Origin: Fibrobacterales bacterium
GTDB taxonomy: Bacteria; Fibrobacterota; Fibrobacteria; Fibrobacterales; JAOPTW01
Direction of reading: 5' to 3'
DNA: 46,644 nt
Assembly (NCBI GenBank): GCA_051532055.1
Contig: JAOPTX010000064.1
Span: forward strand, 1-46,644
Under the pieces are notes generated by a model. That model searched no databases. It was not told the DNA's origin and worked only from the letters and a program-made list of their open reading frames with translations. Position numbers and translations under genes: made by a program. Positions 6,016 to 31,039 of this stretch are shown here, one piece after another. Every line of letters starts with the position of its first letter. The first letter of the stretch is position 1.

Positions 6016-6248
6016 AGGAACCTCCCTCATTATATCCCTTTTATAGTTATCGGGTGTATGATATACTGAGTTGAGTACATTAGCCTCTGTTTTAAAATTG
6101 ATTTTATTCAATCTTAAACTAGGAAAAAATGCGTTCACCGAGGTTATTTGAACAATACGAGAATTAGAGGGTGAATGATGATTACCAGTAAATAATTCAC
6201 GGTAAGGTCCGCCAATAAAGTTAAATACATAATTTTTAAAAAGTTTAA

Positions 6249-6277
6249 TTGACTTTACTTAATTCCAATGATATCAT
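6249..6277 (+). promoter_or_regulatory. Sigma70-type promoter with extended -10
   Basis: TTGACT-N17-TATCAT with TGn; ATG 6284 follows 6 nt later. Confidence 0.65.
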
Positions 6278-6283
6278 ATAGTT

Positions 6284-6493
6284 ATGAAAAGGATATTAAG
6301 CATATTGCGGTTACTATTTTTTATTTCTTGCGTTGAAGTTATGGCGCTTAATAATTCCCGTTATGCTGCAGCTCACTCACATTTTTCTGATAAAGCAGAA
6401 GGGAGTACGCTCTATTTAATTGTTGGTGGTATTGGTTTTGTCATAATTATAGGCCTTTTCATAATACTCGGTTTAAAGTCTCGCAAAAAGTAA
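6284..6493 (+). CDS. Small membrane protein: signal peptide, C-terminal TM, basic tail
   Basis: MKRIL... signal-like start, TM LYLIVGGIGFVIIIGLFIILGL, KSRKK end; promoter directly upstream. Confidence 0.6.
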   Translation: MKRILSILRLLFFISCVEVMALNNSRYAAAHSHFSDKAEGSTLYLIVGGIGFVIIIGLFIILGLKSRKK

Positions 6494-6564
6494 GGGTAAA
6501 AAGATGTTGGACATTGTTAGTATTTTATCTAATTTAGCCCCGTAACCCCCTCAAATAAACGTAT

Positions 6565-7950
6565 ATGCATAGATCAAAAATTTCTTTTTTCTTATTGGTT
6601 CTCTTAATCTGCTCTGTACAGTCTAACTCTCCACAGCTGAGTACAATAAAAAAACTTTATACTATTACTGAACAGCGCATTGTATCGACTACTTATTCAG
6701 TGTTAAATGGTGATACGATTCTTTCTCAGGACACTTCGGTCACTCTTGATACATTGATTGTGAAAGATGAACATATTGTAGTAAAACCAGATTCGGATAC
6801 TTATACCGTTTCCAAAAAAATAGATGACATTATAAAAGGGATGACCGTTGAAGAAAAAGCGGGTCAACTTATAATAGTATATCATTCTAATTATCGGTTT
6901 CTTTCTGAACATAAGGTTGGTGCTGTTTTAATCATGCAAAATATGTTGAAAAAGCCCGGTAAGCTTATTGAGAATTTGAAATTTACTCAAGACAACATGC
7001 ATATTCCTCTTTTGGTAACTATAGATCAAGAGGGTGGACAAATTAATCGATTAAAAAAAGTGCCTGGATGGAAGAAGCTCCCTTCTGCTTTAGAGCTGAG
7101 CAAATGGGATGAAAAAACAATTGAGGAACATGCATACAAGGTCGGAGTAAAATTAAAAGAGATAGGAGTTAATACCAATTTAGCACCTGTCCTCGATCCG
7201 TCTCTCGATCAATTTGGCCTCGGGACTTTTATGCTCAAAACTAAACGTTCTTTTGGAGCTAACGCTGATTCGATCTACAATGCATCAACAGCATTTATGC
7301 AGGGAATGAATAGAGCGGGAATTCTTTGCGTAACAAAACACTACCCTGGATATGATGCAGAAGAAAATAGTGACCATGAAATAACGGTGAGTAATGCAGA
7401 TAGTCTCTTTATATATCAAAATATGAAGGTATTTAATAGGGCTATGGATCGTGCAAGTGGCGTTATGATTAATTCAATTCACTACCCTAACATGTGTAGT
7501 AAACCTGCAGTATTTTGTCCTGAAATTATAGACCAAGTACGGAGAGTGAATCCTCATAAAATTATTATGACTGATGACTTATGGGGGGCGTCTCTCAGAG
7601 GATATGTTAGTAAGAGTAAAAAGGTGCACCGCACTCGTTATGCTAAAAAAGATCTTGTTAAATTAGTTGAAATGCTCTTCATGGCTGGTAATGATATGTT
7701 GATGACTACATATCCTAAGACGGTCCCAGTAATTGTAGAGACTGTAGTTAAGATGGCAATGAGTGAGCCTAAATACATGGAGCAACTCAATATGTCTGTC
7801 AAGCGTATATTAGAAGCGAAAGAGTCTATCGGCTTACTGGATAGGGTAGAGTTGAAAGAGTGGCGCGCTCGATATAATGATATTCTAGAAAATAAAAGAG
7901 CAGAAGATGGTAAGTATCGCGCTCTTTTAACATCGGAACCAAGAGATTAA
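6565..7950 (+). CDS. Secreted glycoside hydrolase family 3 (beta-N-acetylhexosaminidase-like)
   Basis: EEKAGQL, IDQEGG, NLAPVLD, RSFG, KHYPG, TDDL; N-terminal signal peptide. Confidence 0.85.
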   Translation: MHRSKISFFLLVLLICSVQSNSPQLSTIKKLYTITEQRIVSTTYSVLNGDTILSQDTSVTLDTLIVKDEHIVVKPDSDTYTVSKKIDDIIKGMTVEEKAGQLIIVYHSNYRFLSEHKVGAVLIMQNMLKKPGKLIENLKFTQDNMHIPLLVTIDQEGGQINRLKKVPGWKKLPSALELSKWDEKTIEEHAYKVGVKLKEIGVNTNLAPVLDPSLDQFGLGTFMLKTKRSFGANADSIYNASTAFMQGMNRAGILCVTKHYPGYDAEENSDHEITVSNADSLFIYQNMKVFNRAMDRASGVMINSIHYPNMCSKPAVFCPEIIDQVRRVNPHKIIMTDDLWGASLRGYVSKSKKVHRTRYAKKDLVKLVEMLFMAGNDMLMTTYPKTVPVIVETVVKMAMSEPKYMEQLNMSVKRILEAKESIGLLDRVELKEWRARYNDILENKRAEDGKYRALLTSEPRD

Positions 7951-7980
7951 GAAAAGTATAAAGGGGAGAGGTGCTCTCCT

Positions 7981-8478
7981 TTATAGATTTCGATACGCTT
8001 CAAAAAATTCCACAAATCCATCTTTAGCAGTAGAATAACCACTTGTCGAAAATTCTCCATCAGCATAATTAATCTGCACGAATACTTCATCAGATTTTAT
8101 TAGTCTCTCCAAGAAGGGGAGTGTGATAATGTATGATTGAATGGTTTCGGAGCTTCCCGTACGGCTATTTACTTGACAGTGTATACTCTCTTTCTCTGGG
8201 AGTATAAAGTAGAGCTCCTCATCTAGAGTAATGGTGAGCGCATCATCTGTGTCAGAGTTGCAGCGGTTTGGGAGTATCGCATGAAGCATAAGCTCATTTG
8301 TTTCCGCAGATACTGTTGCGGATAGACTGAGTAGTGCTTCAGTATTTGGGAGCCAACCTGGCTGCATTGAAACTTTTGTTGTAAATCCTTGTTCATCTAT
8401 GGAAACAGTTTTTGGTTTAGTTGTAGAGCATGTTACTAATACCATTGATGCTATTGCTGTAATTATAACCTTTCTCAT
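7981..8478 (-). CDS. Hypothetical lipoprotein
   Basis: Signal peptide with lipobox-like LVTC; 165-aa ORF. Confidence 0.65.
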   Translation of the reverse strand: MRKVIITAIASMVLVTCSTTKPKTVSIDEQGFTTKVSMQPGWLPNTEALLSLSATVSAETNELMLHAILPNRCNSDTDDALTITLDEELYFILPEKESIHCQVNSRTGSSETIQSYIITLPFLERLIKSDEVFVQINYADGEFSTSGYSTAKDGFVEFFEAYRNL

Positions 8479-8752
8479 ATCCGTACCCGCCTTACGTTAT
8501 CTAGAGAACCCTGTCTCTTTAAAATAGTATAAACTATGTATACATGATACCAACTAATTGTCACAGAGACACTATATTTGAATCTTGGGTATATTTGATT
8601 GAGCTATTAGACCCATCGATTTGCACTATTTTAATTTTTTGAAAGCCAAACACAGAGAAACACCCAGTAATTCCACCCAATAATTAGTGTCATATAATAT
8701 ATATTATGTAAACCTGTGGGCGTATTGATGGTTTGTTTTTTGGGTTTGTGTC

Positions 8753-9019
8753 TTAGCGTTTGGGGTTGTAATTGTTCATTGCTACCAAAAGAATTGCGAA
8801 GAAGCTCATAATCATTGAGCCTACAATTACTTGTTCTTGGTGGTTGTAGTTGCGCTTGATGTATTTGGCATTTGACGTATCAACCTGAGTTGAATCATCA
8901 AATGAATAGGTATTGTATAGGTCGGTAGCGGAGTTCTCTTGGCTGTTAAAGCCTTGAGCGGAAAGCCCGGTGATGAAAACCAGGCTGCCTATAACAATTA
9001 TTTTACGCAATGAGTTCAT
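8753..9019 (-). CDS. Small membrane protein with signal peptide and C-terminal TM
   Basis: Overlaps the gatB stop by 17 nt; signal ...GLSAQ; TM VIVGSMIMSFFAILLVAM. Confidence 0.7.
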   Translation of the reverse strand: MNSLRKIIVIGSLVFITGLSAQGFNSQENSATDLYNTYSFDDSTQVDTSNAKYIKRNYNHQEQVIVGSMIMSFFAILLVAMNNYNPKR

Positions 9020-10445
9020 CCAAAATTTGATTAACCATGCCTGGGTTTGCTTTACCCTTAGACTGCTTCATGACTTGTCCTACAAAAAATCCTCGAAGCT
9101 TATCCTTACCTGATTTAAACTCGTCAAATTGACCTTGGTTCGCTTCAATAACAGTCATGACGATATCTTTGATTGCGCCTGTGTCAGTTACTTGTACGAG
9201 ATCTTTCTCTTTAATAATTACTTCAGGCATTTTTCCGGATACGATTATTTCTGCAAATACTGTTTTTGCAATTTTACCCGAAATTGTATTTTTATCAATA
9301 AGATTAATCATTTGAGCAAGGTGGTCAGGGGTAACGATGAAGGTATCTATCCCCTCTTTAGCTTCTCGTAACACTTCTGAGATAATCCAGTTTGCAGCTA
9401 ACTTATAGTTTGTTACTTGCTGTGCAACGGAGTCAAAGTAGTGTGCAACTAATTTGTCGGCAATAAGTACTTTGGCATCATAATCACCGAGGCCAAAATC
9501 TTTTTGATAGCGAACATATTTAGCCTCAGGAAGTTCAGGCATTTCATCACGCGCTTTTTGAATCATCTCTTCTGTAATCACGAGACGAACTAAATCAGGT
9601 TCAGGAAAATATTTATAATCTTCAGCATTTTCTTTAGAGCGGAGCATGAGCGTTTTGTTGTTTGCGTCATCCCAGCGTTTCGTACACTGCTCGACCTCTT
9701 TACCTTGAGAGAGTGTGATTTCTTGGAGTTCTATTTCGTAGTTCGATGCTTTCTCTAAGTTAGTAAAAGAATTGAGATTCTTAATTTCTGCTCGGATTCC
9801 TAGAGGGGCGTCTTCCCCTTTTCTAATAGAAACATTTGAGTCTGCACGCAAGTTCCCTTTTTCCATATCGGCATCAGAAACACCTGAGTATTCTAAAATT
9901 TGTTTGAGTTTTTCAAGATATTTAACAGCCTCTTTGGGAGATCGAAGGTCTGGTTCAGTAACAATTTCACACAGAGGTGTACCACAACGATTAGAGTCGA
10001 CATGAGTATCGTCTGCGGTTAGGTCGTGGGTTAATTTACTTGGGTCTTCTTCTAGGTGAATGCGATTAATTCTTATTCTCTTTGTGCTTCCGTCTTCTAG
10101 CTCTATATCGAGATGACCATTTTTACACACCGGCCTATCATAGATAGGAAGACCACCTGTTTGAGTGATCTGATATCCTTTAGGAAGGTCGGGATAGAAA
10201 TAGTTTTTTCGAGTCCACATTGGTTCTGGATCTATTTCACAATTGAGTGCTAGGCCAATTCTAATGGCAAGATTTATCGCTTCTTTATTGGGTATCGGAA
10301 GTGTGCCGGGCATACCAAGACAGACAGGACATACATGGGTATTCGGCTCTGCGCCAAATTCTCTTTTACAGGAGCAAAAAAGCTTTGTTTTAGTGTTTAA
10401 CTGTGTATGAACTTCTAGACCCATAACTGCTGTGTAGGCTGACAT
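9003..10445 (-). CDS. gatB: Asp/Glu-tRNA amidotransferase subunit B
   Basis: GLEVHTQL, TKLFC, RKNYFYPDLPKGYQITQ, EIVTEPD, YKYFPEPDL, GFFVGQVMK. Confidence 0.97.
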   Translation of the reverse strand: MSAYTAVMGLEVHTQLNTKTKLFCSCKREFGAEPNTHVCPVCLGMPGTLPIPNKEAINLAIRIGLALNCEIDPEPMWTRKNYFYPDLPKGYQITQTGGLPIYDRPVCKNGHLDIELEDGSTKRIRINRIHLEEDPSKLTHDLTADDTHVDSNRCGTPLCEIVTEPDLRSPKEAVKYLEKLKQILEYSGVSDADMEKGNLRADSNVSIRKGEDAPLGIRAEIKNLNSFTNLEKASNYEIELQEITLSQGKEVEQCTKRWDDANNKTLMLRSKENAEDYKYFPEPDLVRLVITEEMIQKARDEMPELPEAKYVRYQKDFGLGDYDAKVLIADKLVAHYFDSVAQQVTNYKLAANWIISEVLREAKEGIDTFIVTPDHLAQMINLIDKNTISGKIAKTVFAEIIVSGKMPEVIIKEKDLVQVTDTGAIKDIVMTVIEANQGQFDEFKSGKDKLRGFFVGQVMKQSKGKANPGMVNQILDELIA

Positions 10446-22341: not shown

Positions 22342-22797
22342 ATGACATTAGCAGCTCGTTTAAAAGATGTTAACATTCTCCAGGATTTAGATGAACAAGA
22401 GTTGATCTATATCTCTGATATTTGTAAAGTTAAACACTTTGATTCTGGTCAAATAATATTTGAAGAAGGTTCCAATGGCGATGAACTCTATTTTATTTTA
22501 GATGGTTCAGTTGGTCTCGAAATTTCAAAATATGATGGATCAGGATTTAATAAATTTTGTACTCTTCCAACAAATGAAGTGGTTGGTGACTTGGCATTTA
22601 TCGATGGCGTATCTCGGAGCTCGAGGGCAGTATCTCTTGGGTTACAGGATATAGCATTTGTAGGGCGAGCTGACCTGTACCAATGTTTTGATAACAATCC
22701 ACGCGTTGGGTATCTTGTTATGAAACGACTCTGTGAGCTCATATCAAAGAGATTGCGCCTTACCAATAATATGGTTAAAAGTTCCTTAGATTTATAG
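22342..22797 (+). CDS. Stand-alone cyclic-nucleotide-binding domain protein
   Basis: IFEEGSNGDELYFILDGSV, GDLAFIDGVSRSSRA; no HTH. Confidence 0.88.
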   Translation: MTLAARLKDVNILQDLDEQELIYISDICKVKHFDSGQIIFEEGSNGDELYFILDGSVGLEISKYDGSGFNKFCTLPTNEVVGDLAFIDGVSRSSRAVSLGLQDIAFVGRADLYQCFDNNPRVGYLVMKRLCELISKRLRLTNNMVKSSLDL

Positions 22798-22987: not shown

Positions 22988-24391
22988 ATGAAACCAGCTG
23001 ACGTAATTAAATTAGCCCAAGAAAATGATGTTAAATTTGTTGACCTTATGTTTGGTGATATGTTTGGATCACTGCAACATTTTACACTCCCTATTGGCGA
23101 CTTAAACGAAGACCTTTTTGTTGAGGGTGCAGCTTTTGATGGTTCATCTATTAGAGGATGGAAATCAATTGATAAATCTGATATGCTTATGATGCCCGAT
23201 CCTACCTCTGCATTCATTGATCCCTTCTCAAAATTTTCTACGGTATGCTTGTTCTGTACTATACTTGAACCTCGCACTGGAGCATACTACGATAGAGATC
23301 CTCGTTCAATCGCTGCTAAAGCCGTAGAATATCTTACTGGCCAAGGAATTGGTGATACTGCATTTTTTGGACCAGAACCAGAGTTTTTTATTTTTGATTC
23401 TGTTCGATTTGTTTCTGAGCCAAATTCAGCATTTTACGCTATTGAGTCTGAAGAGTCACCATGGTCAACTGCGGATGAAGGATCATTGGGACACACAATC
23501 CCATGGAAAGGTGGATACTCGCCGGTCTCCCCTAATGACGCCCTTGCTGATTTACGTTGTGAAATTGCACTTAATATGGAATCAATGGGGATTACTACTG
23601 AAGTACACCACCACGAAGTAGGCACCGCTGGACAGTGTGAAGTTGGAACTCGATTTGGAACTATTATTGCTGCAGCCGATCAAGTTCACAAGCTTAAGTA
23701 TGCTGTAAAAAATACCGCTGCGGCGTATGGAAAATCTGCGACATTTATGCCTAAACCACTCTTTGGGGATAATGGAAACGGTATGCATGTACACACATCT
23801 ATCCGTAAAGGCGATGTAAATATATTTGCAGGTGATGGTTATGCAAACATGTCACAAGAAGCACTCTGGGCTATTGGTGGGATCCTTAAACATGGCCGTT
23901 CTATTCAAGCTTTTACCAACCCATCAGTTAATTCATATAGAAGATTGGTTCCTGGATATGAAGCTCCTGTTACTCTTGCATACTCAGCAACGAATCGCTC
24001 TGCCTCTATTCGCATCCCTCATGTGAATGCAGATATTGCACGACGCTTTGAGTTTCGTTGTCCTGATGCATCTGGCTCGCCCTATCTTGCATTCTCTGCT
24101 ATTCTTATGGCGATGATTGATGGTATTAAAAATCAAATTGATCCAGGCGAAGCAATGGATAAAAACATATATGATCTTCCTGTTGAAGAGCTTGCAAAAA
24201 TGACTGCAACATGTGCTTCATTAGAAGAGGCTCTTACTGAACTCGAAGGAGATATGGCGTGGCTCGTAGCTGGTGATGTATTCACCGCTGATATGATTGA
24301 GGCTTATATTGAGTATAAACGTGAGAATGAAATTCTTCCAATGAAACTTCGCCCAAATCCCTTAGAATTTGAACTCTACTATAGCTGCTAA
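22988..24391 (+). CDS. glnA: Glutamine synthetase type I (adenylylatable, GSI-beta-like)
   Basis: FDGSSI, GPEPEFF, HHHEV, TFMPKP..GDNGNGMH, NSYRRLVPGYEAP; KNIYDLP carries the adenylylation-site Tyr. Confidence 0.97.
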   Translation: MKPADVIKLAQENDVKFVDLMFGDMFGSLQHFTLPIGDLNEDLFVEGAAFDGSSIRGWKSIDKSDMLMMPDPTSAFIDPFSKFSTVCLFCTILEPRTGAYYDRDPRSIAAKAVEYLTGQGIGDTAFFGPEPEFFIFDSVRFVSEPNSAFYAIESEESPWSTADEGSLGHTIPWKGGYSPVSPNDALADLRCEIALNMESMGITTEVHHHEVGTAGQCEVGTRFGTIIAAADQVHKLKYAVKNTAAAYGKSATFMPKPLFGDNGNGMHVHTSIRKGDVNIFAGDGYANMSQEALWAIGGILKHGRSIQAFTNPSVNSYRRLVPGYEAPVTLAYSATNRSASIRIPHVNADIARRFEFRCPDASGSPYLAFSAILMAMIDGIKNQIDPGEAMDKNIYDLPVEELAKMTATCASLEEALTELEGDMAWLVAGDVFTADMIEAYIEYKRENEILPMKLRPNPLEFELYYSC

Positions 24392-24474: not shown

Positions 24475-26328
24475 CTATTGTATAGGGATTGAAAGGGTAA
24501 ACTCGGCCCCCTTCCCTATTCCGGCACTATGAACCGTTAAATCACCATCCATTTCACGTGCATAGTTAGCACAAGAGTGAAGCCCAAAACCATGGCCATC
24601 TTCTTTAGTGGTAAATCCATGAGTAAATATTTGAGTTAAGTTCTTTGTATCGATTCCGATACCATTGTCTCTAATGCGTATCAGTAGAGAGCCTCCTGAT
24701 TGTTGACTAGTAAGGCTCAGAACTTTATACGAATCAGGAGAATGTTTAAGAGCGTCAATAGCATTATTTAGAATATTAATAAGGATATGAATAACCTTAC
24801 TTTTTTGAAGTTCTATGGTAGGGGTTTGCGCAAAAACAGTCTTAATTTCGATACCACACTCTTCAATAGTATTTGCTACAATATGGAGTACATCAAGTAA
24901 GATTTGGTCAATATGTGAGTTTTCGAGTAAATAGGCATGCTTAGCGTAGTCTTGTTGGCTTTTTATGACTTCAACTGTTGCTTTTGTTTTCTCTTTCATT
25001 CTATCGAGTTCAATACCTAACTGCTCAACTTTATCAGTGTACAATGAGTCAAGTTCTATGAGATATTGGAAAAGTTTATCACCTTGAGGCGAATCTATAA
25101 ATTGATGAAGTGTTCCCGCTCCCTTCTCTTTTTGAATGAGGTCATTCACTAAGTGGATTTTTGAAAAATCCCCATTGAGTATATTTTGTTCTATGAGTTC
25201 AGCAGAAATAAATACACTGGTAAGAATATTGCCGACATTGTGTAGTGCTCCCGTAGCTACTTCAGCCATACCTGCTTTATGAGCTTGTTGTACCAGTTCT
25301 TCTTGTGTGCTTAAGAGTTGTTTGGTTTTTTCATTTACTTTTATTTCGAGATTTCTTCGATATTCTTCAAGTTCTGTCTCATTATTTTTTCGATTATCTA
25401 TGTCTTGTATAATAGCCATGATTGCTTTTTTATTATGGAGGTCAATAATTTTGAGTGACACCAATGACCAAAATGGTGAGCCATCCATCCTTTTTGAGCG
25501 CCACTCAAGTTGCACTTCATCTTGATTTTTAAATTTGGATATGGTCTCAGACATTTTTTCTAAAGTATACCCTTCTTCGACCGCTGAAAAAGTATCAGAA
25601 CCTTCGGTCATAAATTGTTCTTTTGTGCAGCCAAACATCTTTAAAATAGACTGATTACAATCGATAACGTTATATGTTTCTGTCTCATGGATCATAATTC
25701 CGGTAGCAGAGGAATTGAAGAGTGCTTTATAATTTTGTTCTTGGTCTCGAGTAGTAAGATATGCTTGATTGAGGGTGTGAGTAATGAACCGTGTAATTGA
25801 AGCGACTATTATAAAAGAGACCGGTACTACGGTAATATCGACAATATCAGAGTGCTCACTCATCCGATTGGAAATCAGGTCTTTAAATTCCAAGATCCCA
25901 AGAATCAGTAAATACAATGAATTCAATCCAATGACTACAATAAATGAGGTACGAGAACAGAAAAGGCTTACACAGAGGAGGCCTATTGGAAATAAAATAA
26001 CTGCAGTGTCATGAATACCATCATTGAGAAATAGAGCAGTATCAATAATAGACAATAAAAAAAGTGATAAAAGAAATACAGCAATTCCGAAAAATCCCTT
26101 TGAATTGAGCCATCGCATTGTAAATAAAAACGGAAGAGTGATAGCTATAAGTAAAGATGTTGTCGAGGACAAATCGCCGTCTGATGCGGTTGCTGCCCAA
26201 ACTATAATAGAGCCTACAATGAGAATTTTTAAAAGGAGTTCAAGCCTGAAATGATTCAAAATCAGGTCTAAATTGGGATTGCCAAGTTTTCTAAATAAGG
26301 TGTCAATTTTTTGTAACATATGCTCCAT
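24475..26328 (-). CDS. Membrane-bound PAS-domain sensor histidine kinase
   Basis: About 6 TM, PAS/PAC (RMDGSPFW...IIQDI), H-box ALHNVGN, NILNNA, DNGIGI, FTTK..GHGFGL; start uncertain (26319-26352). Confidence 0.9.
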   Translation of the reverse strand: MEHMLQKIDTLFRKLGNPNLDLILNHFRLELLLKILIVGSIIVWAATASDGDLSSTTSLLIAITLPFLFTMRWLNSKGFFGIAVFLLSLFLLSIIDTALFLNDGIHDTAVILFPIGLLCVSLFCSRTSFIVVIGLNSLYLLILGILEFKDLISNRMSEHSDIVDITVVPVSFIIVASITRFITHTLNQAYLTTRDQEQNYKALFNSSATGIMIHETETYNVIDCNQSILKMFGCTKEQFMTEGSDTFSAVEEGYTLEKMSETISKFKNQDEVQLEWRSKRMDGSPFWSLVSLKIIDLHNKKAIMAIIQDIDNRKNNETELEEYRRNLEIKVNEKTKQLLSTQEELVQQAHKAGMAEVATGALHNVGNILTSVFISAELIEQNILNGDFSKIHLVNDLIQKEKGAGTLHQFIDSPQGDKLFQYLIELDSLYTDKVEQLGIELDRMKEKTKATVEVIKSQQDYAKHAYLLENSHIDQILLDVLHIVANTIEECGIEIKTVFAQTPTIELQKSKVIHILINILNNAIDALKHSPDSYKVLSLTSQQSGGSLLIRIRDNGIGIDTKNLTQIFTHGFTTKEDGHGFGLHSCANYAREMDGDLTVHSAGIGKGAEFTLSIPIQ

Positions 26329-26371
26329 ATAGTGTATCATTAAATAGAACAATAATCTAGAACAACTCTCT

Positions 26372-29300
26372 TTAGAAGTGCCTCAGTGGAAAAAGTTGGT
26401 TTGATATTTTAGTTATAACAATTCGAGTTTTTGTATAATCTTCAATGAAACGCTCTCTAATATGGTGCTTGTGTATATCCCGATAATTAAGTTTAAAGGC
26501 TATAAGCCTGAGTTCTTCATCTGATTCTGGTAAAAGATGCAGTTGCTGGAGACCATTTATTTGTAAGGTATGCTCTATTGCCCTTAAAAACGAGTAATGC
26601 TTAGAAAGTTCAACACATTCAGTATCAGTAATGATTGAATGTTGGCTCAGTAAAAAAAGAGCTTTTAGTGTGTTTCCTGTAACAATTTCAGGATTTTGTT
26701 TCCCATGAATAACTTGAAGACGTTGTACGTAGAATTCTATAGTACGAATTCCACCAGGACCATTTTTAACCTCTCGTTCTAACTGAGAATCTTTGGTGAG
26801 GCCATCAAGCACAATATATCTGAGTTTTTCCATACTCGATTGAATAGAAGAGATTCGTGATGGGTCAAAAAGGAACCCTTGAATCTCTTCGATGAGAACA
26901 GCTCCAGCAGAGATATTTCCGCAGAGTGGAGCAGCTTTTAACCAGATTTGTAGTTCCCATCCTTGAGCATCATCACTATAATAGTCAATATAATGATTGC
27001 GAGTTGCAATCATTGCCCCTTGTGACCCATAGGGCCTTAGGTTGGTATCAACCCTAAAGAGTTGTCCAAAGCGTGATGTTTCGTGTAGGGCCTTAATAAA
27101 TCGGTTGTTGACTTTTTCGAGCAACGTACGGTCATCTCTACTTAAGTGAGGATCAACGACAACAAAGAGAATATCTATATCGGATGAGTAGTTAAGTTCA
27201 TGCCCCCCAAGTTTGCCCATTGCGATAATTACTTGCCGATTGGATAAGTGTTGGTAGCCCATAGTTTTGAAAATATACTGATAGATTATGTTACATATGG
27301 CGTATGAAAGGTCGGATATCTCCGAGACAATTTGACCGAGAGAGGTGTTGAGATAGCTATCTCTTAATGAAATTCTGACATATTCGTCATTTCGGTACTT
27401 CCGGATACGGTTTAAGAATGCGTGATGATCTTTTTGATATTGAGCACATTTAGATTCAATATCCTTAGTAAACTGATCGTACGATTTTTTTACTTTCAAA
27501 TTCCCTGAATCAATTAATTTATGCAATATCGCTGGGTCATTAGCATAGGCATTCGCTAAAAAATCACTCTGAGCAAATATGTGAAGGACCATTTCAAGAT
27601 ATGAGGTATCATTTGAAATAGCTAAAATGAGCTGGTTTACATCCTCAGTAGTATTTTTTAAAAGGTATTCAATGTTTATCGAAATTTTTTCTGCAGCAGG
27701 AGAACGAATTAAATATTTCTCTATGAGGGCAAAAAAACTGAGGAGTAAAGGGGCCTGATCTTTATGCTCTTCGAGTATACGCTTGAGAATGGCGAGGGTT
27801 TTATTTTGGGTTGAGAGCTCTAAACGTTGTAAAATGAGCTCTATTTTCAGTGGACTCAGTTCTTCGGTAACGGCGTCAACAAGGCCAGGTAAATACTCTT
27901 CTGTGGTATAAACAGTGCTATTGAATATTGAATCATAAAAGAGGGCGTTGTTATGACGGTAATATTCTATATCACTCTGAAGCGTACTGTAATGAGATTC
28001 TATTTTCCGATATTTCATTCGACGTGACAAAAAAAGAAATTCAGAACTTTCCTCTGAAGGGAGTTCGAGATCTTTAGCATTACCTGAGACAATTCTTAAA
28101 TTATTAATAAGACGATGAAAAAATGAGTACCCATTAAAAAGTTTTTCATACAGCGCAGGAGAAATTAACTCTTTATTTAAGAGAATGGTCATCACACCAG
28201 GTATATTAGTATAACGGAGTTCGGGTATTGATTTTCCGTGAAATACTTGAAGGTATTGGATAGGATATTCAATATCTACCAATCCACCACGAGATAGTTT
28301 TGCATTAAAAAAATGATGATTTGTGAGATGTTGGATCTGTTTTTGTCTCAATTTGTAAAGTGGTTGACTCTCAATATGATAGCTTTCATAAAGAATACTA
28401 TCGCGTATGCTGAGTATCTCTTTTTGGAAGGAGTCATCACGGGCAACAATTCTGGCTTTGGTGAGGGCTAGTTTTTCATAAGAAAGTGTTGATTCCTTCT
28501 CGAGATAATACTCCTTCCATCGTCTAAGACTACAAGCAAGTGCGCCTTTTTCCCCATCAGGACGTAATCGAAGGTCAAGGTCAAACATTCCCTCTTTTTT
28601 GGCTTTATAGCTTCGGGTAAAAAGTTCTATCATTCTGTTGAAGAATTCTTGGTTGGAAGCTGGAGTCCGTCCTCCAAAACACTGTTGATTATCTTTGTAG
28701 ATAAATACCAGTTCGAGATCCGAAGCATACCCCATTTCAATAGAACCATATTTCCCGAGACCCATGAATGCATAGGGGCATGCCTGTTCGTTATAACGTG
28801 GTGAACCATAACGCTCTTTGGTTTTTTCGTAACAACAATCAAGCATCGATGAAATAATAACATCGGCGAGTTGAGATAACTTTTGAGAAAAGATAGAGAA
28901 ATTAACTCTATTAAGTATTTGATGTGAAAGTTCTAACCTAAGTAATTCATTGTCTTTAAATAGGTTGATGCGAGAAATCTTTACATCAAAGTCAAGATCC
29001 GCACTGAGAGTGTTCCCCAACTCCATAGTTAGGGTCTCTTTTGTTTTTACACGTTGTAATTCTTTAACGTTCTTAAATAGAGGAAGAAGGTTCTCTTGTT
29101 GGTTTTTGGCAAAATCCTCCCATACGCTGTTTCCTGAACCAAAGAGCTTGGCCATATGCTCAAGAATTTCTTCAGAATTATTTTTGAGATATTCAAAGTC
29201 ATTTTTATCGTCCTGCAGATATTTTTTGAGAAAAGAATAAAAGTTTTGAATGGAACCACTGTAGTCAGAGGCTTGAGGGAGATAGGTAAAAAACTGTTTG

Positions 29301-30082
29301 ATAAGGGCGACTGAAACCTTTATCTTTTGAAGTTCATTTTGCTGGTTGATGGCATGGTTGTTTTTATCGGTAAAGACAATAAGGTCATCTACGGTGTTAT
29401 GTTTAGTCTGCAAGACCACTGATTTAATAGTGAGTTGCAAAAGATTAAGTGCATAGGATAGTGTGTAGATGAAAAAAGGAGTATCTTGCCCCAATACCTT
29501 TAAGTAGGTGTTGGTATCGTCAAAGTCTATGCTAATGTCAAGAGGTTCCACGATAGGAGTCCTAGTGACTTCTGTATTAGTGATAAACTGTCCTACAAGG
29601 GTGTTTACCCGATGACGTACTGCAACCATGCCACTTTTTTTATAGAGTGCTAGAAAGTCATTTAAATGAAGAGATATAAGCTCTTGAATTACCTCTGGAG
29701 ATTGTGTTGTTGTAACTTGGAACCAATTAAATACTTTTGGTTTATCACGATAGAAATCTGTAGCTAAATTATCAGAACATGGACCATAGGTAAAACCTCG
29801 AGCGGATCCAATGTTGAACCCTGAAACGGCTAAAGTACCTGTGGCAATGGAAAAGAATCCTTGAAAATCATATGCTATGAGAGTGATTTCGACAGTACCA
29901 GGAATTGTTGTGTGTGTAGAACAGAGAAAAGGCTGGTTGGTTAGTTGGGTAAGAGCGGTAAGATGTTTCTTTATAGTAGAATCATCAAAAAAGGCAAAGT
30001 AATCACTTTGCAGGCGCTCCCAATGATGTATCCAGATGTCTCCGAATGTGCTCTGAAATGATTTAAATAGTGTGCTTCTCAT
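26372..30082 (-). CDS. glnE: Glutamine synthetase adenylyltransferase/adenylyl-removing enzyme with N-terminal GlnD-like ACT domains
   Basis: Two nucleotidyltransferase motifs (GLGKYG..EMGYASDLE; MGKLGGHELNYSSDID), two DxxLRP.G motifs, two GG..xIE motifs. Confidence 0.9.
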   Translation of the reverse strand: MRSTLFKSFQSTFGDIWIHHWERLQSDYFAFFDDSTIKKHLTALTQLTNQPFLCSTHTTIPGTVEITLIAYDFQGFFSIATGTLAVSGFNIGSARGFTYGPCSDNLATDFYRDKPKVFNWFQVTTTQSPEVIQELISLHLNDFLALYKKSGMVAVRHRVNTLVGQFITNTEVTRTPIVEPLDISIDFDDTNTYLKVLGQDTPFFIYTLSYALNLLQLTIKSVVLQTKHNTVDDLIVFTDKNNHAINQQNELQKIKVSVALIKQFFTYLPQASDYSGSIQNFYSFLKKYLQDDKNDFEYLKNNSEEILEHMAKLFGSGNSVWEDFAKNQQENLLPLFKNVKELQRVKTKETLTMELGNTLSADLDFDVKISRINLFKDNELLRLELSHQILNRVNFSIFSQKLSQLADVIISSMLDCCYEKTKERYGSPRYNEQACPYAFMGLGKYGSIEMGYASDLELVFIYKDNQQCFGGRTPASNQEFFNRMIELFTRSYKAKKEGMFDLDLRLRPDGEKGALACSLRRWKEYYLEKESTLSYEKLALTKARIVARDDSFQKEILSIRDSILYESYHIESQPLYKLRQKQIQHLTNHHFFNAKLSRGGLVDIEYPIQYLQVFHGKSIPELRYTNIPGVMTILLNKELISPALYEKLFNGYSFFHRLINNLRIVSGNAKDLELPSEESSEFLFLSRRMKYRKIESHYSTLQSDIEYYRHNNALFYDSIFNSTVYTTEEYLPGLVDAVTEELSPLKIELILQRLELSTQNKTLAILKRILEEHKDQAPLLLSFFALIEKYLIRSPAAEKISINIEYLLKNTTEDVNQLILAISNDTSYLEMVLHIFAQSDFLANAYANDPAILHKLIDSGNLKVKKSYDQFTKDIESKCAQYQKDHHAFLNRIRKYRNDEYVRISLRDSYLNTSLGQIVSEISDLSYAICNIIYQYIFKTMGYQHLSNRQVIIAMGKLGGHELNYSSDIDILFVVVDPHLSRDDRTLLEKVNNRFIKALHETSRFGQLFRVDTNLRPYGSQGAMIATRNHYIDYYSDDAQGWELQIWLKAAPLCGNISAGAVLIEEIQGFLFDPSRISSIQSSMEKLRYIVLDGLTKDSQLEREVKNGPGGIRTIEFYVQRLQVIHGKQNPEIVTGNTLKALFLLSQHSIITDTECVELSKHYSFLRAIEHTLQINGLQQLHLLPESDEELRLIAFKLNYRDIHKHHIRERFIEDYTKTRIVITKISNQLFPLRHF

Positions 30083-30149: not shown

Positions 30150-30851
30150 CTATTTATTAAGCATTTGTGCTATAACACCTAGAGACATCGCTTTGGTGTG
30201 CTTTTTACCATTGATGTAGAATGAAGGAGTTCCGCGAACGCCCACTGATGACCCAAGAGCCATATCTGCTTTTATAACAGCATTAGATGCTGCATTGAGA
30301 ACCATATCTTTTTTGAATTGCTCCATATTTAATCCAATTTTTTTAGCAACATCAATAAATGTAGCTTCAGAAAGGTTTTTGTATTGAGGAGCAAGAGCAT
30401 TTCTGTATTCAAAGAATTTACCTTGGTTATGAGCAGCCATTGACGCAGCATGCGCAGCAGGTGCTTTTTTGTGGAAACTGAGTGGAAAATGCTTGAAGAC
30501 AAGACGAACCTGTTCAGGATATTTTTCCATTATACGTTGTACTTGTTCTGTTGCACGTGCACAATATGGGCATTGAAAGTCAGAAAACTCAACGATGGTA
30601 ATTTTAGGATCTTTAGCTCCCATAACAGGGCTGGTTCCTTCAGGAATTACGTGAGCAGTCTCTTCTGCCATTTTTTGCTGTTTGATACTTGCAAGGCTTG
30701 CACCTTTGCTTTTCAAATACCATTTAATAAGCTCGAGCTCTTCTTGGATTTTAGCAACATCCCCATTAGATGAACTTTTTTTGTCCCCTTCAGCCTGACA
30801 AGCCATAATTGAGACGAGTATGATGGCTGCGCTAAATATGAGTTTTTTCAT
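30150..30851 (-). CDS. DsbA-family thioredoxin-fold lipoprotein
   Basis: IMAC lipobox, EFSDFQCPYC, KHFPL, GVRGTPSF; start MKKL. Confidence 0.9.
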   Translation of the reverse strand: MKKLIFSAAIILVSIMACQAEGDKKSSSNGDVAKIQEELELIKWYLKSKGASLASIKQQKMAEETAHVIPEGTSPVMGAKDPKITIVEFSDFQCPYCARATEQVQRIMEKYPEQVRLVFKHFPLSFHKKAPAAHAASMAAHNQGKFFEYRNALAPQYKNLSEATFIDVAKKIGLNMEQFKKDMVLNAASNAVIKADMALGSSVGVRGTPSFYINGKKHTKAMSLGVIAQMLNK

Positions 30852-31039
30852 TGTTGTACCTTTTAACATCCCTGCTTTTGGGGTGCGAATTATAAATTAT
30901 CCCTTTAATATAACAAGTTAGCACGTTTTTGAATAGCAAAAGTAGAGTTTTTTAGTATTTCACTTCACTTGTTCTTAGATCTAGAAATAGTTATATTTCG
31001 TAGAAAATAACCTAAATAACAAAGAAAAAGGAACAATCA

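Follow-up and report, generated by a model that had tools for sequence, protein, structure and literature searches.

Can a glutamine synthetase adenylyltransferase carry a glutamine sensor of its own? GlnD, PII, GlnE and glutamine synthetase (GS) form the textbook bicyclic covalent-modification cascade, and the question is raised by a long glnE gene in a 46,644-nucleotide contig of a Fibrobacterales bacterium (JAOPTX010000064.1, assembly GCA_051532055.1), a stretch that we call the window. The first-pass annotation, made from the sequence alone, had placed a GlnD-like double-ACT sensor at 29300-30082, which corresponds to amino acids (aa) 1-261 of an open reading frame (ORF) of 1236 aa. On balance we favour reading the product as a bifunctional enzyme of the GlnE type, with an adenylyl transferase (AT) half followed by an adenylyl removase (AR) half and, ahead of the AT half, a GlnD-type glutamine-sensing module.

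The resemblance to GlnD lies where it had been announced. The three fragments originally quoted for it, WERLQSDYF...IKKH, VEITLIAYDFQG...ARGFT and TYLKVLGQDTPFF...VDDLIVFTD, are located at aa 21-40, 64-98 and 192-239 of the translation, and two GlnD profiles match the same region: positions 622-844 of 850 in TIGR01693 with aa 19-257 (E 1.1e-17 against the full-length protein, 5.2e-13 against aa 1-260 by themselves) and positions 695-919 of 940 in PRK05092 with aa 20-258 (E 1.2e-18). Both matches fall in the C-terminal end of GlnD; no other part of the profiles is matched anywhere in the protein, which is without the GlnD nucleotidyltransferase and HD domains and scores 63.6 bits where the full GlnD profile has a cut-off of 519.4. 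A profile built from 24 homologous N-termini aligns with residues 651-871 of the 890-residue E. coli GlnD (hhalign probability 96.4%, E 1.4e-9), the first 49 aa being homologous to the GlnD linker between HD and ACT1 (E. coli GlnD ~651-700). The same profile matches the last ~250 aa of all nine GlnD proteins tested, eight of the same phylum and that of E. coli (E 6e-29 to 3e-14). The profile check proposed in the first-pass annotation has therefore matched the C-terminal ends of GlnD beyond chance.

Searched by sequence, the PDB has no meaningful match to aa 1-260 (best E 0.99), so that a fold search was needed. The AlphaFold2 model of the N-terminal module, computed from the 24-sequence alignment, is confident (mean predicted local distance difference test score 90.9, predicted template modelling score 0.88). 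It has helices over aa 2-49, then a pair of beta-alpha-beta-beta-alpha units (aa 52-169 and 181-270). In the first unit, the modelled strands span aa 52-60, 63-71, 90-98 and 116-124 and the helices aa 76-86 and 129-169; in the second, the strands span aa 181-187, 192-199, 218-227 and 230-238 and the helices aa 204-214 and 248-270. When the model was compared with all representatives of known structures (VIA-align), the top match was the tandem-ACT aspartate kinase of Synechocystis (3l76; Z 12.6, root-mean-square deviation (rmsd) 4.8, 158 residues aligned). The regulatory domains of threonine deaminase (IlvA; Z 8.8 and 8.7), CASTOR1/2 (Z 7.3-7.9) and a lone plant domain of ACT-like fold (Z 7.7, 77 of 79 residues aligned at rmsd 2.0) were matched as well, and Foldseek concurs, listing regulatory subunits of aspartate kinases and the large glutamate dehydrogenase that bears ACT domains. 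The annotation had staked its claim on an ACT fold at aa 55-255, and a confident tandem ACT fold is predicted there; profiles, hhalign, model and structural matches all uphold a GlnD-like linker-ACT1-ACT2 arrangement over the first ~270 aa.

How widespread is this arrangement? An exhaustive HMMER search of 1.84 billion representatives with aa 1-280 returned 293 proteins at E <= 0.001, including 132 at E <= 1e-10. We examined the architectures of the query and the best 150 of the 293, that is 151 proteins, of which 70 are at least 1100 aa long. Among these long proteins, the ACT pair precedes two nucleotidyltransferase (NT) halves in 58, query included (ACT-NT-NT, equivalent to ACT-ACT-AT-AR; 56 clean and two with a split second half), and stands between them in 11 (NT-ACT-NT, equivalent to AR-ACT-ACT-AT). 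The latter form, hereafter the inserted form, had been postulated in the first-pass annotation as an ancestor, and both architectures and profile coordinates show that it exists. The remaining long protein, P0028, has 1795 aa, matches aa 91-141 in 20 stretches and carries neither ACT nor NT domains by profiles; it is probably a repetitive, compositional match. In both layouts the ACT pair immediately precedes the AT half. The 81 shorter proteins comprise 42 ACT-NT, 31 ACT alone, six NT-ACT and two ACT-NT-NT; many of them were probably cut off at contig ends, and some of the 42 ACT-NT proteins (P0009, P0013, P0016 and 39 others) may be genuine half-size ACT-AT enzymes. The GlnD architecture is absent among the best 150 matches, and all of those with an NT half score as GlnE-type.

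A misassembly or fusion artefact was considered and rejected, because the same architecture recurs in the 58 long proteins and an 81%-identical homologue of the long GlnE is found on an independent contig. Source names, which come from 20 cluster look-ups, exist for few proteins: this homologue and another member bear the labels of Fibrobacterales and Fibrobacteria metagenome-assembled genomes (MAGs) and the name 'hypothetical protein', while those inserted forms that have a source name bear the labels Anaerolineales and Calditrichota; some members are called glutamine synthetase adenylyltransferase. A tree of the ACT regions sets nine GlnD proteins apart from 65 pairs carried by GlnE, with a support of 0.84 or 0.97 according to how it is read after re-rooting. 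Among these pairs, the 11 of the inserted form make up a clade (support 0.876), the 54 of the N-terminal form a weakly supported one (0.524), and the two layouts come out as sisters. This topology is consistent with a single capture of a GlnD-type module and, after it, one permutation, without telling which layout came first.

The N-terminal module might be a relic that evolution has kept for structural reasons alone, stabilising the permuted enzyme, with GlnE regulated solely by PII or not at all. Such a reading could draw on the query's own N-terminal sequence, which has drifted below the Pfam ACT thresholds, while among the 24 homologous N-termini the Pfam ACT family PF01842 is matched by 11 (best E 2.9e-8), PF13291 (ACT_4) by eight and the plant ACR9 ACT model by four. 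A relic is nevertheless hard to reconcile with the conservation of the module. At a pairwise identity of ~26%, no exchange is seen at D200 and F204, inside a DTPFF motif of ACT2, and another 14 columns reach at least 90% conservation; near-invariant residues are D72, G82, I91, G94 and T98 in ACT1, as well as T201 and D233. As far as an alignment can tell, this conservation points to selection on the sensor. The fold is also confidently predicted, and the module is kept in both layouts, so that we consider a relic unlikely.

The remainder of the protein is built like the 946-aa GlnE of E. coli, from two homologous nucleotidyltransferase halves, each with PF03710 and PF08335. PF03710 (GlnE) occurs at aa ~309-557 (E 1.3e-41) and ~830-1058 (E 5.4e-42), PF08335 (GlnD_UR_UTase) at aa ~580-710 and 1098-1231, and the structures of the E. 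coli AR domain (1v4a, E 2.4e-39) and AT domain (3k7d, E 7.8e-26) are matched by sequence. The order of the halves is reversed. All three GlnE profiles align best through their AT part with aa 261-780 (profile positions 547-873, 544-933 and 598-967) and through their AR part with aa 781-1236 (positions 24-417, 24-448 and 184-499). A tree of 130 halves, from 54 ACT-ACT-AT-AR proteins, 10 AR-ACT-ACT-AT proteins and E. coli GlnE (proteins below 1100 aa, those with a half below 350 aa and the two with a split second half being omitted), agrees. One clade unites the E. coli AT half, the 54 first halves and the 10 second halves of the inserted form with SH-like support of 0.957, or 1.0 when E. coli is left out; the E. 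coli AR half falls on the opposite side of the tree, together with the first halves that the inserted form contributes. Profiles and tree thus bear out a permutation relative to E. coli, and the protein can be described, on these alignments, as linker-ACT-ACT-AT-AR rather than the canonical AR-AT.

Both active sites look intact in the alignment. D455 and E457 align with D701 and D703 of E. coli GlnE, D968 and D970 with D173 and D175, and none of the four varies among 36 full-length relatives. The glutamate is peculiar to one side: ACT-linked AT halves have DxE in 54 of 54 N-terminal and 10 of 10 inserted forms, the AR halves have DxD in 64 of 64, and both E. coli halves have DxD. DxE is a derived trait common to the ACT-AT modules. 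One E. coli-like GlnE of 1387 aa, P0155, found in one assembly, adds PF01928 and PF05235; since ygiF lies directly upstream of glnE in E. coli K-12, it is probably a read-through or gene-call fusion of neighbours.

What does the enzyme act on, and what could inform it? The assembly to which the window belongs (5.17 Mb, 94.4% complete) encodes one type I GS (GS-I), one GS-III-like gene by Pfam, and the long GlnE as its sole GlnE by profile search. The glnA product shares 55% identity with E. coli GS, and its adenylylation tyrosine is conserved (Y395, codon 24170-24172, in NIYDLP aligned with E. coli NLYDLP). The check for glnD and glnB suggested by the first-pass annotation gave a contrasted picture: a GlnD profile search of the assembly returned nothing except the N-terminus of the long GlnE itself, and six PII-family genes are present, on contigs C94, C8, C109 and C15 (loci L002-L007). 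None of the six PII proteins has the uridylylation tyrosine at the position of E. coli GlnB Tyr51. Two of the PII genes are adjacent on C109, one with a short T-loop and the other with a long insert, and presumably resemble NifI1/NifI2 pairs.

These findings bear on whether the enzyme might modify a target other than GS-I, such as PII or a GS-III-like protein, as a functional GlnD/GlnE hybrid. The scores under the GlnE equivalog cut-offs and the DxE motif of the AT half would suit this idea, as would the GS-III-like gene adjoining the homologue in another genome of the phylum (G080). Both halves, however, match GlnE (E 1e-53 to 1e-85) far better than the GlnD nucleotidyltransferase (1e-5 or weaker), the HD domain is missing, and the candidate substrates divide the wrong way: the acceptor Tyr51 is found in 0 of 6 PII proteins, whereas GS-I retains its acceptor tyrosine. 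We regard another target as very improbable.

The rest of the phylum shows how far the ACT-bearing GlnE goes with the loss of the cascade. GlnE is encoded in 37 of the 201 genomes of our sample: in 29 a single open frame of 1164-1427 aa holds both halves, in eight the gene is split by contig ends or frame breaks, and none of the 37 has a complete GlnE gene of canonical length (~950 aa). Full-length GlnD is also present in 23 of the 37 (E 3e-100 or better), or in 22 of 36 without G195, a genome flagged as unpublished. The other 14, among them ours and its congener G001, are without GlnD (best GlnD-profile E 4.7e-13 or weaker) at a completeness of 77-98%. GlnB-type PII retains Tyr51 in the three GlnD-bearing genomes of the phylum that were checked, and PII is without it in the two GlnD-less genomes checked. 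There are two regimes in the phylum, with and without GlnD, and the ACT-GlnE occurs in both. Since 23 of the 37 genomes keep full-length GlnD, the fusion alone does not amount to a collapsed cascade and, as a rule, does not replace the cascade. The proposal of the first-pass annotation, that the cascade had been collapsed into one protein, is thus supported in part: our genome has no GlnD and no PII with Tyr51, although PII may still act on the enzyme, and a collapse is not a general consequence of the fusion.

How could such an enzyme work? The ACT pair would bind glutamine, or a closely related amino acid that reports nitrogen status. Once occupied, it would favour the neighbouring AT site and disfavour AMP removal, GS receiving AMP and being turned down; when empty, it would favour the AR site, AMP being removed by phosphorolysis. 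We propose this direction, occupancy favouring adenylylation, from the constant position of the ACT pair next to the AT half. A predicted complex of aa 1-280 with aa 281-780 (score 0.03, mark 0.32, without controls) speaks neither for nor against contact between the two. In our genome, where PII-UMP cannot form, the built-in sensor would supply a glutamine signal that in E. coli reaches GlnE in part by way of GlnD and PII-UMP, and unmodified PII could still report 2-oxoglutarate and energy status.

Glutamine as the ligand is suggested by analogy. The ACT region of GlnD was reported to bind glutamine (Zhang et al. 2010, as cited in PMC11190351), and the same article describes an algal amylase activated by glutamine through a GlnD-like ACT domain. 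The canonical GS adenylyltransferase is described as two homologous halves with a central regulatory domain between them, steered by PII and PII-UMP (PMC12409994). Could the ACT pair instead sense or dock something else, and tune GlnE without reporting glutamine? Another amino acid, a metabolite related to 2-oxoglutarate, oligomerisation, or a surface docking PII or GS are all conceivable. ACT domains bind many different ligands, and the top fold matches are ACT pairs that sense lysine/threonine, isoleucine and arginine; the coexistence with GlnD in most GlnE-bearing genomes suggests a non-redundant signal, and PII genes are kept in our genome. On the other side, the nearest sequence relatives outside the family are the C-termini of GlnD and not other ACT families, some members match the model of the plant ACR family, which is described as GlnD-like (PMC12702975), and glutamine is the product of GS, the substrate of the enzyme. 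A different ligand or a docking role is in our view a real but distinctly less probable alternative.

Several observations weigh against the reading of the protein as a GlnE with a GlnD-type glutamine sensor, and they concern each of its parts. For the sensor, the N-terminus of the query itself has no Pfam ACT match at E <= 0.01, GDH_ACT1 at E 0.08 being the sole match, and we know of no GlnD-glutamine structure with which the pocket could be compared. For the enzyme, the scores fall below the GlnE cut-offs of PRK14109 (396.2 against 625), PRK11072 (381.6 against 487) and PRK14108 (341.1 against 724). In phmmer comparisons with the E. coli halves (AR 1-440, AT 449-946), the scores are indecisive (105.8 vs 93.5 and 107.4 vs 95.2 bits), and the AT and AR halves were therefore assigned by profiles and tree. 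The tree itself has E. coli GlnE as its single canonical anchor, because a search for diverse canonical GlnE proteins yielded enterobacterial ones alone (the best 120 word-index matches to E. coli GlnE are all enterobacterial and at least 88% identical). For the regulatory role, the frequent presence of GlnD beside the ACT-GlnE counts against it, as do the six PII genes, which mean that PII could still feed into the enzyme. A general linkage of glnA and glnE was rejected: the two are close just in our genome and G001 among the six genomes checked.

Even so, the GlnD-type glutamine-sensing GlnE remains the reading we favour, and the canonical enzyme sets it in proportion. E. coli adenylyltransferase itself responds directly to glutamine and actinobacterial GlnE works without PII, so that direct sensing would be a matter of degree and not a new principle. 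In those Fibrobacterota that have neither GlnD nor a PII with Tyr51, it is conceivable, although we would not count on it, that the ACT pair on GlnE is the only GlnD-type glutamine sensor of the cell and drives adenylylation and de-adenylylation of GS directly. If this were true, it would be a one-protein replacement for the GlnD/PII-UMP arm, combining the sensor that GlnD itself uses with a circularly permuted GlnE.

The features of the window are listed in the table below. The gene for the PAS histidine kinase begins 19 bases past the glnE stop on the same strand and is probably co-transcribed with the long glnE; no response regulator was seen beside it. On the opposite strand, glnA is convergent with the glnE group, ~2 kb off and two genes away. 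Directly upstream of glnA and on its strand lies a gene for a 151-aa stand-alone cyclic-nucleotide-binding protein (22342-22797; PF00027, E 1.3e-11). Other genomes of the phylum have other neighbours: in G080, a GS-III-like gene (749-aa frame; C78:4302-4862, minus strand) is directly downstream of the long glnE (6123-9383, minus strand), and on contig C121 of G132 two PII genes are found at a distance of 3-5 kb from glnE.

Features of the long glnE gene and its neighbours (positions in the window)
Feature	Position	Strand	Description and basis
Long permuted glnE gene	26372..30082	-	One 1236-aa ORF, linker-ACT1-ACT2-AT-AR; ORF translation, Pfam and NCBIfam profiles
Linker, four short helices, aa 1-49	29936..30082	-	AlphaFold2 helices over aa 2-49; hhalign to E. 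coli GlnD from 651
ACT1 unit, aa 50-170	29573..29935	-	AlphaFold2 model, fold search, conservation
ACT2 unit, aa 181-270	29273..29542	-	AlphaFold2 model; VIA-align to single ACT domains over aa 180-263
AT-type half, aa 281-756	27815..29242	-	GlnE profiles, tree; D455 and E457, codons 28712-28720
AR-type half, aa 781-1236	26375..27742	-	GlnE profiles, tree; D968 and D970, codons 27173-27181
glnA, type I glutamine synthetase, presumed substrate	22988..24391	+	Pfam Gln-synt_N and Gln-synt_C
DsbA-like thioredoxin gene	30150-30869	-	Flanks the long glnE on one side
PAS histidine kinase gene, membrane-anchored	24475-26352	-	PAS_9, HATPase_c

With E. coli GlnE, the protein shares the paired halves, the aligned catalytic carboxylates and a genome in which GS-I keeps the target tyrosine; it differs in the AT-AR order, ~280 extra N-terminal residues, the DxE motif of the AT half, and a genome without a GlnD or PII-UMP partner. 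With GlnD it has in common the C-terminal linker and two ACT folds, whereas the GlnD nucleotidyltransferase and HD are missing and the ACT pairs separate in the tree. Closest in design are the AR-ACT-ACT-AT proteins, such as P0069 (source label Anaerolineales MAG) and P0095 (Calditrichota MAG), which carry the same GlnD-type ACT pair directly upstream of a DxE AT half; there, AR stands ahead of an internal module, while here it stands behind AT and the module is N-terminal. By domain order, the two layouts are circular permutations of each other. Outside Bacteria, GlnD-like ACT units are tied to the glutamine response in accounts of the Chlamydomonas alpha-amylase AMA2 and of plant ACR11 (PMC11190351, PMC3173338). 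The likeness, drawn from these descriptions, is that of a GlnD-related ACT unit on, or acting on, a metabolic enzyme; these systems are eukaryotic and their catalytic domains unrelated.

No description of an ACT-bearing GlnE was found in the full-text literature, a corpus that leaves subscription journals largely outside and does not cover supplements. The protein is a real variant of a known enzyme, apparently undescribed: judged by its sequence it is GlnE-like, yet it departs from the curated family in score and in domain order, and it bears an extra sensor. These GlnE proteins score under the NCBI cut-offs and some of them carry the name 'hypothetical protein', so that inventories of nitrogen regulation in MAGs of Fibrobacterota, Calditrichota and Chloroflexota can miss them. 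To our knowledge, neither the reading of glutamine by the ACT region of GlnD nor the site of glutamine on GlnE is structurally defined, and an ACT pair wired onto an AT half would offer a compact in vitro system for ACT-mediated glutamine sensing. Two permuted layouts, in genomes with and without GlnD, may also reveal how cascades shorten or rewire in evolution.

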